From: Dictyostelium discoideum
Lineage: Eukaryota
NCBI GenBank assembly: GCA_000004695.1
Contig: CM000153.2
Location: forward strand, 3,552,001 to 3,616,000
Length of the DNA: 64,000 nt
Reading direction: 5' to 3'
The notes beneath the pieces were generated by a model that searched no databases, was not told where the DNA came from, and saw only the letters and a program-made list of their open reading frames with translations. The position numbers and the translations under genes were made by a program. This document shows, piece after piece, positions 38,065 through 45,379 of the stretch (position 1 is the stretch's first letter; each line of letters begins with the position of its first letter).

Positions 38065-39549
38065 ATGGGTTATTCTTATGTTAAATATGATTCATTTACA
38101 ACATCTAACCCAGTAAATAAAGCGGTATTGGGATTATCTATTATAAGATTATTTATATTTTTTGTAATTTTCATATTAAATTTAAATCAAACGATTAAAG
38201 AAATTTTAATAGCAAAGAGAAAAAAAAAATTTATTTATAATGCACGTTTATTAACATATATTTCAATTACAATTTATCCATTTAGTAAGTAAATGAATAA
38301 TAATAATCTCAAAATTATTTTTATTATTAATATTTTTATTTTTTATAAAAAAATAATTAATAACATTGTTTTTATCAAATTAAAATTTTTTTAGCAAGAC
38401 TTGGAATGATTGGTGCATTTTTTTATGATAAGAACATTGATAACGGATCAATTACTGTGGCTATTAGTATTTGGGGAACTCTATTTCAGTACACAGAATG
38501 GGTAGGTTTTAAAGTTTTTTATTTTTATTTTTTTATTTTTTTTTAAAAAATAATATTAATTAACAAAAAAAATAAAATTAAATAATAATAATAAAATTAA
38601 TAAAAATAGGTTTTTATTGCTGGTTATTGGCTTAGTTTATTATATACCTTTTTTTTAAGTAAGGACATGGTGTTAGTAAATACAAAAAAAGCATGGCTAG
38701 TTTCTTATGGTATATTTGTAATTTTAGTTTTTTGGACAATTATTCAAACAGTTTTTAATTTTTATTATGTAGATTATATGGTAAATAATTTATTTTAAAA
38801 TTAATAATAATAATTATAGTTTTTTTTTTTTTTTTTTTTTTTTTTTCTTCTAACCATAATTTGTTTTTGTTTAAAAAAAAAAAAAAAAAAAAAAGAATGC
38901 AACATATGGTCCAGGTCAAATTGTTATTGTTTGTGGAATTGGTGGATTTTATTTTATAAATGGTGTTCTATTATTTAAATCAATGAAAAAATATGATCAA
39001 TCAGGAAATACTCAATTAGGAGAAAGATATAATAGAATTGTTAAAATGGTAGTTATATTATTAATTTTAGTAGTTAGCGTATTTTTAGTATACATAGTAC
39101 AATTTCCGATATTAGGATCAGAAGACCATCAAACATCAAATTATGCATTTTATTTAGTAAGTTGTTTATTAGAATTTATGCAATTACCAGTGGTTATGTA
39201 CTCTTTAGGTGGAGATTCTTTTAAACCTTATTTTAAATTCTTTAAATATGATGAAACTCTTAGCTCTAAAGGATATACAACAAGCGGTGGTGGTGCAGGT
39301 GGTGCAGGTTCTTCAGCTAATAAAAGTTGTGGTGAAATATCATTGGATGTCAATGATTCGTCGATGGTATCTAGAAATACAGAAACTACAATGACAGCAT
39401 CCACATTTAATAACACCTCAGCCTATTCACTAACATCTTCAAACATTACAAATAATACATCAACTTCAACATTTAATAATATTTCATCATCAACATTAAA
39501 CTCTTCAGCTGTTAATTTATCATTGTCCACAGAGTTAAATAAATATTAA
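38065..39549 (+). CDS. Seven-transmembrane (GPCR-like) membrane protein with a Ser/Thr/Asn-rich C-terminal tail, paralog 1. Exons about 38065-38285, 38395-38481, 38619-38779 and 38896-39549.
   Basis: MGYSYVKYDSFTTSNPVNKAVLGLSIIRLFIFFVIFILNLNQTIKEILIAKRKKKFIYNARLLTYISITIYPF|(T)RLGMIGAFFYDKNIDNGSITVAISIWGTLFQYTEW|VFIAGYWLSLLYTFFLSKDMVLVNTKKAWLVSYGIFVILVFWTIIQTVFNFYYVDYM|NATYGPGQIVIVCGIGGFYFINGVLLF...YAFYLVSCLLEFMQLPVVMYSLGGDSFKPYF... Seven hydrophobic helices. Donors are gtaagt, gtaggt and gtaaat; acceptors are tttag, aatag and aaag. Confidence 0.6.
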
Positions 39550-39604
39550 AAAAAAAAAAAAAGGGATAACAAATTTAAATTAAAAATAGATTTATTTTAA
39601 TATT

Positions 39605-40490
39605 TTAAACAGAATTTTCACTAGAATCTAAATTTGAACAACTAATATTTGGAGATTCACTGACATTACTAACATTTGATGAAGAAATATTTGAGATCAC
39701 ACTTGAATCTATTGATTTTTGAGTTTGAATGTTTTTTAATTTAATATTGTTATTATTATCATGTGCATCAGAGCTATAGTTACTATCAACAGTTGATGAA
39801 GATACACCACTATAATATTCACTCTTTGGATCTTCTGGTAATTTTTGATTATATAAAATTATATATCTTTTAAATGAATCACCACCCAATGAATACATTA
39901 CAATTGGTAATTGAGTAAATTCAATAAGTGAAGCTATTAAATAAAAAATATAATTTCCAGTTTCTTTTCCATTCCATTTTAAAATTAGTACTTGAACAAC
40001 AAACATAAATAATGCACCAAAAACTAATAATAAAAGTGCAAAAGATAAAAAAATAATTCTTTTATAACCTTTTTGAAAACTTTTAACTTTTCCTTTCTTT
40101 TTCATTTCTCTAATTAATAAAACACCATTAACAAAATAAAAAATACCAATACTAACAATTAAAATAACTTGTCCAACACCATATGTTCTATCCTAAATTT
40201 TTAAAATTTTTTAAATATTGTTTAAAATTTTTTAGTATAGATAATTATTTTTTTTTATTTTTTATGGTACAAAAAACTTACCATTAGTGGGAGATTGTAA
40301 AAATTAAAAACTGTTTGAACAATTGTCCAAATAATTAAAATAATTACAATTGACCAAGATGCAATCCAAACAATTTTAGTATTAGTTTTTACATAATCTT
40401 TGGTTAAAAAGAAAGTATATAAAAGACTCATCCAATAACAAGCAATAAAAACCTATATTTAATTTAAAAATAAAAAATAAATTTTATTAG

Positions 40491-40533
<43 letters not shown>

Positions 40534-40680
40534 CTTACCCATTCAAAATATTGAAACATAGTTGCCCAGATACTCATAACTGCCATAACTGAACCTCTAT
40601 AAATACTTTTATCATATCCCAAAAATTCACCAATCATTGCAGTTTTGACTAATTATTAAAAATTAAAAAAGAGTTTAATT

Positions 40681-40716
<36 letters not shown>

Positions 40717-40945
40717 CATACGTACTTAATGGGTAAATAGTAATACAGATATAAGTAACCAAACGTGCATTTGTAAAATAAACATTTCTTTTTCTTGCTG
40801 CAATGAATTCTCTAATTGATTGATTTAAGTTTAATAAAAAAAATAAAAAGAATATCAACATTCTAATAATGGACAAACCAAGGATTGCCTTATTAACAGG
40901 ATCAGACGTAGTAAATTCGTCCAAAACTTCATTCTTAAACACCAT
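39605..40945 (-). CDS. Seven-transmembrane (GPCR-like) membrane protein, paralog 2. Minus-strand exons about 40945-40726, 40658-40559, 40452-40282 and 40199-39605.
   Basis: MVFKNEVLDEFTTSDPVNKAILGLSIIRMLIFFLFFLLNLNQSIREFIAARKRNVYFTNARLVTYICITIYPL|(I)KTAMIGEFLGYDKSIYRGSVMAVMSIWATMFQYFEW|VFIACYWMSLLYTFFLTKDYVKTNTKIVWIASWSIVIILIIWTIVQTVFNFYNLPLM|DRTYGVGQVILIVSIGIFYFVNGVLLIREMKKKGKVK...YIFYLIASLIEFTQLPIVMYSLGGDSFKRYI... It has the same intron positions as paralog 1. Confidence 0.6.
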
Positions 40946-41583
40946 TCCTTTATTTTTACAAATTAAAAAATTTTAGAAATTTATCTCTTTTTTTCTATTT
41001 CTCTTTACTTTTTAGTGAGGTAGTTTTTGAAAATAAGTAAGACTGGAAGAATTTTTTTTGATACCCAACAAAATATAAAAAGACTTAAGGATTAAAAAAT
41101 TTATTCTAATAACCATTGTCATTGAAAGCCATATATTAATAAATTTTCAATTAAAAAAAAATGTGGAAATCTAAGATGGTTTGCTGAATAAAAAATTATG
41201 GCTTGTGGTTGGCCAATTTTTTTTTTTTTTTTATTTTTTTAATAATATCTCGGACGAATTTTGTTTTTTTTTTTTAGGACTAAATGTTAAATTAAAAAAT
41301 TGCACCAAAATGCATTCAAAAATAGATTTCGTTGTTCTTTTTTTTCTTTGGAAACTAAATTATTAGTATTAAAAAGAAAAAAAAAATAAAAAATTAATAG
41401 AAAGTCAACTTTTGCAATAACAAATCCAATTTATTTAATAATTTTTTTTTTTTTTTAAAACTTTCGCAGTTTGGTGAATGATATTTTTTATGAAAAAAAA
41501 AAAAATTATCTGCAAAGACATTGATTGTTTTTTTTTATATATTTTTTTTTTTTTTTTTCTTAACAAATATATTATTATTTTTA

Positions 41584-43491: not shown

Positions 43492-43502
43492 TTTTAGTTA
43501 GC

Positions 43503-43541
<39 letters not shown>

Positions 43542-43688
43542 CTTTTTTTTATTTTTTGCGAATTTCAGTGAAAAAAAAAAAAAAAGATTGGTAATACAAA
43601 AAACCTAGCTTACGGTCTAAAAGGAAAGTGTAGGAATTAAACATAAAAAAAATAGGTAATACAAACAAAATAACATTTTTATTTTTTT

Positions 43689-43720
<32 letters not shown>

Positions 43721-44206
43721 AGAAATAATATCTTTTTTTTTATATGAAAACACATGGTTAGGATTAATATTTTTTATTTTTTTATTTTTGTTTTTTTTTT
43801 TTTTTTTTGTCCAATAAATAAAAATGGTTTAAAATTTTTTTTTTTTTTAAACAAAAAGATAAGATTTTTTGATGTGATTTCATATTTGGATTTTTTTTTT
43901 TTCCCTCAAAAAGAATGGTGTTGGACAATTTTAAATGATTTCTATTTGACAGTTTTTGTTTTTTCTTTATTATACATAAAAAAAAAAAAAAAAAAAACTT
44001 ATTTTAAAAATCTAATCTCTGATAATATTTATTTAGGTTTTTGGGATAATTTATTTTGACTCCTTTTTATTTTTAAATATGATGAATAAAATTTTTTTTT
44101 TTTTTTGTTATGTCTTTTCTTTAATATTACATTATAAAAAAAAAAAAAAAAAAAAAAAAATAAAAGAAAGTAAAATAAAATAAATAATTATAAAATTTTT
44201 GATAAA

Positions 44207-44870
44207 ATGGGATATAAAGCAATAAAATTAGATGAATTTACATCAAATGAAACAATAAATAAAGCCATATTAGGATTATCAATAATTAGGTTATTTATTT
44301 TTTTAATATTTTTTATTTTATCTCTAAACCAAACTTTAAAAGAAATTAAAATTGAAAAAGAGAAATCAAAAAAATTTTATTTAAAAAATGCTAGAATTTA
44401 TTCATATGTCACAATTACATTATTTTCTTTAAGTAATATATTTTTTTTTTTATTTAATTATTTTTAAAACTATTTATTTATTTATTTTATATTTTTTTTT
44501 TATTTTTTTATTTTTTTTAAAATTAATTTTGGGAAATAAAAAAGTGAGAATGGCAATGATTGGAGTCTTTTTTTATGATAAATCAATTTATAATGGTTCA
44601 GTATGGTCAGCTATGAGTATTTGGGGTACGTTATTTCAATACTTACTTTGGGTATCAATTGCAGGATATTGGATGTCATTATTATATTCTTTTTTTTTAA
44701 GTAAGAATGTTGTAGCTAAAAATATAAATGCTGCTTGGAATGCTACATATTTAATTGGATTAGTTTTAATAATTTGGACTATTTCACAAACTATTTGTAA
44801 TTTTTATTATGTTAAATTAATGGTAAATTTTATTATAAATTAATAAACTAAAATTAATTAATTTATTAAA

Positions 44871-44901
<31 letters not shown>

Positions 44902-45379
44902 AATTTAGAATTTAATTTATGGTCCTGTTCAAGTTGTAATTATTAGTGGTATTGGTACATTTTATATAATAAATGGTTTTATATTAGTAAGAGGTATGAA
45001 AAGTCATGAAATGAATGGTAGTAAAATTGAAAAGTTAAAAGAACAATATAAAAGGGTTATTAGATTATGTATTTTATTATTTTTATTTGTTATTTTGGCA
45101 CTTGTATTATATTTAATACAATATCAAATTTTAAAACTTGAAGACTATGATAAAGAGAATTATATATTTTATATGTTTGTTTGTTTTTTAGAATTCTCTC
45201 AACTATTAATTATTATGTATTCTTTGGGTGGTGATAGTTTTAAAAATTATTTTATATTATATTCATTCAGTCCAATTCAAACAAAAAATGTAAATTATGG
45301 AATTAGTTCAAATATCTCTACAGCATCATCAACATCTTCTTCTTCAAAAAATGAAATTGAATTAAAAGTAAATGATTAA
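44207..45379 (+). CDS. Seven-transmembrane (GPCR-like) membrane protein, paralog 3. Exons about 44207-44436, 44554-44822 and 44909-45379, one intron fewer than paralogs 1 and 2.
   Basis: MGYKAIKLDEFTSNETINKAILGLSIIRLFIFLIFFILSLNQTLKEIKIEKEKSKKFYLKNARIYSYVTITLFSL|(M)RMAMIGVFFYDKSIYNGSVWSAMSIWGTLFQYLLWVSIAGYWMSLLYSFFLSKNVVAKNINAAWNATYLIGLVLIIWTISQTICNFYYVKLM|NLIYGPVQVVIISGIGTFYIINGFILVRGMKSHE...YIFYMFVCFLEFSQLLIIMYSLGGDSFKNYF... The junction W|VFIAGYW, which is split by an intron in the other two paralogs, is continuous here. Confidence 0.6.

Follow-up and report, generated by a model that had tools for sequence, protein, structure and literature searches.

The Dictyostelium cAMP receptors cAR1-4 (G-protein-coupled receptor (GPCR) family 6) combine a seven-transmembrane (7TM) core with a serine-rich cytoplasmic tail that is phosphorylated, and they form a lineage-expanded multigene family. 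The plant THH1/TOM1/TOM3 proteins likewise possess a 7TM core, carry no accessory domains, and have no established cellular function. Orphan GPCRs of choanoflagellates, termed 'Remi-sans-famille' (RSF), are also bare 7TM proteins; their 2025 description reports a weak structural link to THH1/TOM1/TOM3, homologues in amoebozoans, and, as a hallmark, an additional helix with an NxLQxxMNxL motif between the sixth and seventh transmembrane helices (TM6 and TM7) (PMC12716839). A 2023 phylogeny-wide survey of social amoeba GPCRs relied on InterPro identifiers for classes 1-6 to select its proteins, and its text makes no mention of TOM1, PF06454, or IPR009457. Here, we analyze three 7TM genes, designated P1, P2, and P3, all of which lie within 7.3 kb of a 64,000-nucleotide stretch of Dictyostelium discoideum DNA (assembly GCA_000004695.1, contig CM000153.2, positions 3,552,001 to 3,616,000 of the forward strand). 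This whole stretch is referred to as the window, coordinates are counted from its first letter unless another locus is named, and an exact-sequence look-up of the encoded proteins assigned it to strain AX4.

The family to which P1-P3 belong shares with cAR1-4 the organism, the 7TM core, a serine-rich tail resembling the phosphorylated tails of those receptors, and lineage-specific expansion, whereas none of the 26 family members scanned matched Dicty_CAR. It is like THH1/TOM1/TOM3 in the size of the 7TM core, in the lack of accessory domains, and in having no established cellular function, whereas the N- and C-terminal architecture differs and no sequence relationship was detectable. Its TM6-TM7 loop is only ~10 residues long and holds neither the helix nor the motif of the RSF proteins. 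Relative to the GOST/Lung_7-TM_R proteins (GPR107/108 and TMEM87), the family has neither a GOLD domain nor a Lung_7-TM_R match; relative to class A GPCRs, it has no 7tm_1 match at E ≤ 10 and displays a signature of its own (R/Q in TM1, R in TM2, and WxxxxxxW in TM3). Sequence identity to proteins with a GPCR fold (CB2, GPR3/GPR6, the S1P receptors, Frizzled, and TMEM87A) is only 3-13%. With moderate confidence, we propose that P1, P2, and P3 are three functional tandem paralogues of a 7TM family restricted to Dictyostelia, that intron 2 was lost in the third copy, and that the encoded proteins may serve as receptor-like sensors. The three genes are already annotated, as hypothetical proteins in the reference annotation, yet they are uncharacterised.

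Gene structure and paralogy of the P1-P3 cluster

P1 (DDB_G0285685; Q54MS9), located on the plus strand at 38065..39549, encodes a protein of 383 residues identical to the deposited AX4 protein. Its exons, stop codon included, span 38065-38284, 38395-38501, 38610-38780, and 38896-39549, with introns in phases 1, 0, and 0; the 7TM core, as judged from an AlphaFold2 (AF2) model and from composition, covers residues ~19-270 and is followed by a cytoplasmic tail of 113 residues, 48% of which are serine, threonine, or asparagine (S/T/N). P2, on the minus strand at 39605..40945, encodes 362 residues with a tail of 93; its fitted exon chain (40945-40726, 40648-40539, 40452-40282, and 40192-39605) has the same intron positions and phases as P1. 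The gene is presumably DDB_G0285687. An exact-sequence look-up of the 362-residue model gave no match in the protein collection, and the AX4 reference model of P2 may differ from the present exon chain; compared with a D. discoideum strain protein (P0009), the model shows only a few substitutions and differs in length by two residues (NN). P3 (DDB_G0285691; Q54MS5), on the plus strand at 44207..45379, encodes 324 residues, again identical to the deposited AX4 protein, with a tail of 50 residues; its exons (44207-44432, 44545-44822, and 44909-45379) are separated by introns 1 and 3 only. In two D. discoideum strain assemblies, P3 is annotated at 288-289 residues as against 324 in AX4, which reflects either gene-model differences or genuine strain variation. 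Exon chains were obtained by enumerating splice combinations and fitting them exactly, and all introns of the three genes are of the GT..AG type and 77-115 nt long, in a region that is extremely AT-rich (GC 10-33%).

These exon chains confirm the arrangement described in the initial annotation, namely paralogs in plus, minus, plus order, with P1 and P2 tail to tail and a dolichol kinase gene between P2 and P3. Because only 55 bp (39550..39604, read directly from the sequence) separate the converging stop codons of P1 and P2, the 3′ ends of the two genes are bound either to overlap or to use a very compact termination region in common. The dolichol kinase gene (DDB_G0285689; Q54MS7) is an intronless open reading frame (ORF) of 635 residues at 41584-43491 on the minus strand, matched exactly and named in UniRef; its CTP_transf_1 match (E 5.7e-4) is under the cut-off, and it stands outside the 7TM family. 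Beyond P1, P2, and P3, the 64-kb window contains zero additional family copies or relics.

The three proteins are 50-54% identical over a core of ~280 residues, with pairwise BLASTP identities of 50-51% and E values of 2e-92, 1e-92, and 4e-81 that are far past chance, and their tails consist of 42-48% S/T/N. Full-length similarity, adjacency, and common intron positions and phases, that is, all of the marks of local duplication, are found in P1, P2, and P3. The paralogy, the strand order, and the matching introns thus support the duplication with inversion that had been read from the sequence, as the measured tail composition does for the long S/T/N tails. The motif strings proposed at that stage hold overall, with several one-residue errors: P3 carries T rather than P before INKA (its actual reading is VSIAGYWMSLLYSFFL), P2 holds one additional residue in the MIG loop, and the TM7 pattern was short by one residue (LLEF, not LEF).

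Synteny, phylogeny, and selection

In Dictyostelium firmibasis, the gene order is identical, with P1 (plus), P2 (minus), the dolichol kinase orthologue (minus), and P3 (plus) followed by a gene with a Gad2 domain; DNA identity to the window, with which the locus is collinear, is 65-93%. In the syntenic stretch of D. purpureum, P0005 is the only family member between a WD40 gene and the Gad2 gene, and in that stretch the dolichol kinase is absent. The kinase may have moved in between existing copies, as the initial annotation had it, or the copies may have arisen on either side of a kinase already in place; these data favor neither course.

In neighbor-joining trees, P1, P2, P3, and P0005 formed a single clade (100%), to which Polysphondylium violaceum P0020 was sister (95-96%). 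The inner order is fragile: the trio excluding D. purpureum was recovered in 43% of bootstraps, P2+P3 in 68%, and P1+P2 without P3 in ~5% of 500 replicates, while the grouping of D. purpureum with P1 depended on the distance used (99% with BLOSUM62 distances and 54% with Kimura-corrected ones). Since support for that grouping dropped in this way, the triplication may have preceded or followed the D. purpureum split.

Between D. discoideum and D. firmibasis orthologues, dN/dS was 0.15 for P1, 0.15 for P2, and 0.29 for P3; within P3, it was 0.25 in the 7TM core and 0.53 in the tail, and the tails overall diverge fast (0.17-0.53). All three genes are under purifying selection, with P3 somewhat less constrained. 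The trio would have arisen, by local duplication and a single inversion, ahead of the divergence of D. discoideum and D. firmibasis, and would have been kept by purifying selection since then. This record of duplication, inversion, and probable intron loss is genuine, yet commonplace among evolving gene families.

Intron turnover in the family

P1 and P2 contain introns after nucleotides 220 (phase 1), 327/330 (phase 0), and 498/501 (phase 0), at identical aligned codons, which bears out the earlier observation that they share all three intron positions. P3 contains introns after nucleotides 226 (intron 1) and 504 (intron 3), so that all three genes have the phase 1 intron 1 and the phase 0 intron 3 in common, with intron 2 (phase 0) confined to P1 and P2. 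At the site of intron 2, P3 reads TGG GTA (W111-V112; plus strand, 44649..44654) within an uninterrupted ORF and with no indel in the alignment. The lack of an intron at the W|VFIA junction, as the initial annotation had it, therefore does not stem from a misread continuous segment.

Comparison with other dictyostelids revealed wider intron turnover than had been described at first. Intron 1, which follows YP(F/L) of TM2, is found in nine of the ten other resolved family genes, including those of P. violaceum and Tieghemostelium lacteum and one of the two Cavenderia fasciculata genes, and is therefore ancient in the family; the first intron of D. purpureum P0022 lies 1 nt off this site, C. fasciculata P0037 has no intron there, and Acytostelium subglobosum P0023, a partial gene model, was left out of the comparison. 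Intron 3 (M|N, phase 0) is, among the resolved genes, confined to P1, P2, and P3. D. purpureum P0005, a member of the same clade, lacks introns 2 and 3 and has instead an intron of 120 nt after VIVV|GIGG (locus L002, 7875-7996; GL871120.1), verified on the DNA, which lies downstream of the intron 3 site by 36 nt (12 codons) and suggests that an intron was replaced rather than simply lost. Intron 2 is absent from T. lacteum P0025 as well.

Around one conserved tryptophan codon in TM3, introns occupy three different positions, all within 3 nt. In P1 and P2, intron 2 follows this codon in phase 0 (38499-38501 in P1); in P. violaceum P0020, an intron precedes it, 3 nt upstream of the intron 2 site (E|W, phase 0; locus L003, 5823-5825); and in D. 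purpureum P0022, an intron lies inside it, 1 nt upstream of that site (TG|G, phase 2; locus L006, 3462-3463). These near-coincident positions could reflect sliding of introns, repeated insertion at a hot spot, or errors in the gene models.

In D. firmibasis, all three introns recur in P1 and P2, and the P3 orthologue (P0185) likewise lacks intron 2, so its absence from P3 predates the split of the two species. The claim of a lineage-specific intron loss in P3 accordingly needs to be divided: a loss is probable, and 'lineage-specific' has to be qualified to cover at least the common ancestor with D. firmibasis. We consider the loss in P3 the likelier history because P1 and P2 share the intron, because trees with P3 branching first make up ~5% of bootstraps, and because the two nearest outgroup genes carry an intron at a distance of 1-3 nt. 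On this view, the common ancestor of P1-P3 would have had introns 1, 2, and 3, the second of which was later lost precisely in the third copy, and there is at least one further independent absence of intron 2, in D. purpureum. Counting against this history, the outgroup introns (P0020 and P0022) are off the exact nucleotide of intron 2, which leaves the polarity unproven; ancestral presence is favored rather than proven.

Two other histories of P3 deserve consideration. The gene might never have had intron 2, with the gain of this intron falling in the P1/P2 lineage or at a site prone to repeated insertion; the three slightly different positions within 3 nt of the tryptophan could indeed represent repeated gains at a proto-splice site, the intron is also missing from D. 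purpureum P0005 and T. lacteum P0025, and the branching order of P1, P2, and P3 is weakly supported. We nevertheless regard such a gain as improbable, since the favored topologies do not pair P1 with P2 to the exclusion of P3 (a pairing found in only ~5% of bootstraps) and would require it twice at one nucleotide, since position and phase are identical in P1 and P2 of two species, and since the junction in P3 is exact and without indel. Alternatively, P3 might be a decaying or retrotransposed copy rather than a working gene, as its shortest tail, its highest dN/dS, its missing intron, and the two shorter strain annotations could suggest. This is hardly credible, as the ORF of P3 is intact, two introns with good splice sites are retained, the core is under purifying selection, all of the family-invariant residues are kept, and the orthologue is conserved at the same position in D. 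firmibasis; on the strength of the dN/dS values, the two retained introns, and that orthologue, we rejected the pseudogene or retrocopy reading. Loss of intron 2 from a functional P3 is thus the history that we retain.

Family distribution and conserved residues

An exhaustive hidden Markov model (HMM) profile search of 1.84 billion cluster representatives returned 45 clusters at E < 1e-3, and every named hit among them (24/24) was dictyostelid. Family members come from D. purpureum, D. citrinum, P. violaceum, A. subglobosum, C. fasciculata, T. lacteum, and Synstelium polycarpum, with at least seven distinct members in C. fasciculata and at least four in D. purpureum. A homologue search with the family alignment returned 11 proteins, among them the D. 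firmibasis P3 orthologue, and zero bridging sequences. Judged by these sequence searches, this is a small protein family restricted to Dictyostelia. C. fasciculata P0041 (909 residues) and the dictyostelid members P0053 (1980 residues) and P0063 (928 residues) are annotated with the 7TM module behind large N-terminal regions, one of these dictyostelid fusion proteins carries the name 'actin binding protein E', and the fusions may be merged gene models or genuine multidomain receptors.

An alignment of 26 members defines a family signature. In TM1, R28 is present in 25 of the 26 sequences and Q42, at the cytoplasmic end of the helix, in all; R75 in TM2 is found in 23 and G91 in the first outer loop in all; in TM3, W109 and W116 each occur in 25, as do G189 and L192 in TM5; and residue 259 in TM7 is acidic in every member, with Y278 in the helix after TM7 present in 24. 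The corresponding motifs are WxxxxxxW in TM3, NGxxL in TM5, and E/DxxQxxxVM in TM7. The conserved charges at residues 28, 75, and 259 of P1 are encoded on the plus strand at about 38146-38148, 38399-38401, and 39173-39175. Buried charges on three helices that are adjacent in the GPCR fold are unusual, and in the predicted structure R28, R75, and acidic 259 might form a polar network or bind a charged ligand.

Predicted fold and topology

AF2 modeling of the core of P0001, which is 97% identical to P1, with the 26-sequence family alignment gave a mean predicted local distance difference test score (pLDDT) of 83.4 and a predicted template modeling score (pTM) of 0.81, superseding an earlier run on a nine-sequence alignment with a pLDDT of only 64. 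The model shows seven long helices and a short eighth helix after TM7. A Kyte-Doolittle scan at a strict threshold showed 4-6 peaks only; we judged it too crude and preferred the structural model, which predicts the seven helices that the initial annotation had assumed. Lysine plus arginine residues total 12, 15, and 15 (P1, P2, and P3, respectively) in loops 1-2, 3-4, and 5-6, as compared with 2, 6, and 6 in the N-terminus and loops 2-3, 4-5, and 6-7, which, by the positive-inside rule, places the N-terminus outside and the C-terminus inside. P1, P2, and P3 are therefore predicted to adopt a GPCR-type seven-helix fold with an extracellular N-terminus and a cytoplasmic C-terminus. The predicted extracellular surface is very small, consisting of an N-terminus of ~18 residues and outer loops of 8-11 residues.

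The THH1/TOM1/TOM3 label and Pfam membership

Pfam scans of P1-P3, nine close homologues, and the 26 family members at E ≤ 10 returned nothing meaningful for 7tm_1/2/3, Dicty_CAR (PF05462), Frizzled, Lung_7-TM_R, or PF06454, nor any other meaningful match, and so agree with the earlier remark that the identity of the family is not obvious from comparison with GPCR families, DUF1084, and Lung_7-TM_R. Weak matches to TMEM9, FA_desaturase, TgpA_N, and EBP, scattered over single members, were dismissed as noise. Sequence searches of the PDB with the family profile reached E 0.6 at best.

The automatic UniRef/UniProt name of P1, P3, and many dictyostelid relatives is 'THH1/TOM1/TOM3 domain-containing protein'. 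We compared the family with a set of genuine plant TOM3/THH1 proteins, all carrying PF06454.18, whose query was 97% identical to Arabidopsis thaliana TOM3. Precomputed Pfam columns were empty for the family members and held PF06454.18 for the plant proteins. Alignment of the two profiles by hhalign yielded a probability of 0.5% (E 0.11 over 38 columns) against a shallow plant profile (at least 78% identity), and reciprocal HMM searches between the family and plant TOM3/THH1 scored 10-12 bits at best, as compared with 6.5-8.5 bits for shuffled controls. No TOM1-family structure is present in the PDB. At the level of sequence, the UniProt label is thus not reproduced, and the name may be a leftover of an older model.

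Proposed role of the trio

In our working model, each of the three proteins would comprise the ~18-residue extracellular N-terminus, the seven TM helices, a short amphipathic helix, and the S/T/N-rich low-complexity tail, and would function as a receptor-like membrane sensor. With so little extracellular mass, a ligand would need to bind inside the helix bundle. The bundle would take up a small ligand or partner where R28 (TM1), R75 (TM2), and E/D259 (TM7) sit, and relay or attenuation of the signal would fall to the cytoplasmic loops together with the phosphorylatable tail, in the manner of the cAMP receptors of the same organism. We assign a receptor-type role to P1, P2, and P3 only tentatively, at somewhat less than an even chance, with G-protein coupling putative. 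It is doubtful, and distinctly less probable, that the family forms an uncatalogued Dictyostelia-specific class of true signaling receptors, possibly coupled to G proteins or arrestin, that originated, or diverged past recognition, at the root of the social amoebae, expanded in tandem, and uses the R/R/E site for an anionic cue.

Two interpretations without a ligand-activated receptor compete with this model. The proteins may be highly diverged true members of THH1/TOM1/TOM3 (PF06454; DUF1084), that is, TOM1-like seven-pass scaffolds of the endomembrane system (vacuolar/lysosomal) that recruit ARL8-type GTPases, as would fit (i) the UniRef names, (ii) the common 7TM core of ~280 residues without extra domains, (iii) the classification of TOM1 itself as GPCR-like (PMC2530877; PMC11195488), and (iv) the reported copurification of TOM1 with ARL8 (PMC3234234). 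We consider this unlikely, though deserving of real weight, given that PF06454 matches none of the 26 members, that the hhalign probability and the near-control HMM scores described above offer little for it, and that TOM3 starts with ~45 residues ahead of TM1 and is nearly tailless, as compared with 18 residues and tails of 50-113 in the family. A GPCR fold could also serve a non-receptor job, with the proteins acting as cargo or trafficking factors, as ion conductors in the manner of TMEM87A and GOST proteins, or in lipid handling. Yet a GOLD or other lumenal domain is missing, the N-terminus has just 18 residues, class A receptors outscore TMEM87A structurally, and the Pfam scans gave no meaningful match of the Lung_7-TM_R/GOST type beyond one WLS-like_TM match at chance level (E 2.9, one member), which makes such a job quite improbable.

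Several observations weigh against the receptor-like sensor that we favor. In addition to the lack of meaningful Pfam matches, the DRY, NPxxY, and CWxP motifs of class A receptors are absent from the family, the corresponding sites reading LYTFFLSKD at the end of TM3, LVYIVQFPIL in TM6, and LEFMQLPVVMYSLGG in TM7. The structure is a prediction from only 26 sequences, the closeness of R28, R75, and E259 was deduced from helix positions rather than from model coordinates, and the best Foldseek hit in the PDB was weak (E 8.5e-3), with TMEM87A, a channel or trafficking protein, scoring nearly as high as class A receptors. A GPCR fold need not mean G-protein signaling, and in a split-ubiquitin assay plant TOM1 failed to interact with Gα (PMC2530877). 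Finally, a full-text search with the four gene identifiers found no publication or experimental data in the library covered.

Other genes in the window

A second tandem array occupies 2548-21032 of the window on the minus strand and consists of four ORFs ending in an FtsX-like permease C-terminal domain (Pfam E 1e-25 to 1e-32), located at 2548-4590 (681 residues), 7924-11643 (1240 residues), 12754-16383 (1210 residues), and 17280-21032 (1251 residues). This domain is better known from bacteria. Pfam further identified an ORF with the C-terminal domain of gamma-secretase-activating protein at 26419-29745 on the plus strand (E 1.7e-23), an FNIP-repeat ORF at 48767-50200 on the minus strand, and a Y_phosphatase2 tyrosine phosphatase ORF at 53103-54962 on the plus strand (E 2.5e-43). 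Since a Y_phosphatase2 gene is also present downstream in the D. purpureum locus, synteny reaches past the P1-P3 cluster.

Implications

In a genome poor in introns, the locus offers a tidy example of how introns turn over, with one ancient intron, one that was probably lost at least once, one that appears to have been replaced 36 nt away, and three near-coincident positions. If P1-P3 and their relatives are real receptors, the published dictyostelid GPCR repertoire, built on InterPro classes 1-6, may be incomplete, and the members of the family, at least 4-7 per genome, would be candidate orphan chemoreceptors for development or prey sensing. If they are true signaling receptors, they would constitute a sixth family in the dictyostelid GPCR repertoire, which serves for studying how multicellular signaling evolved.

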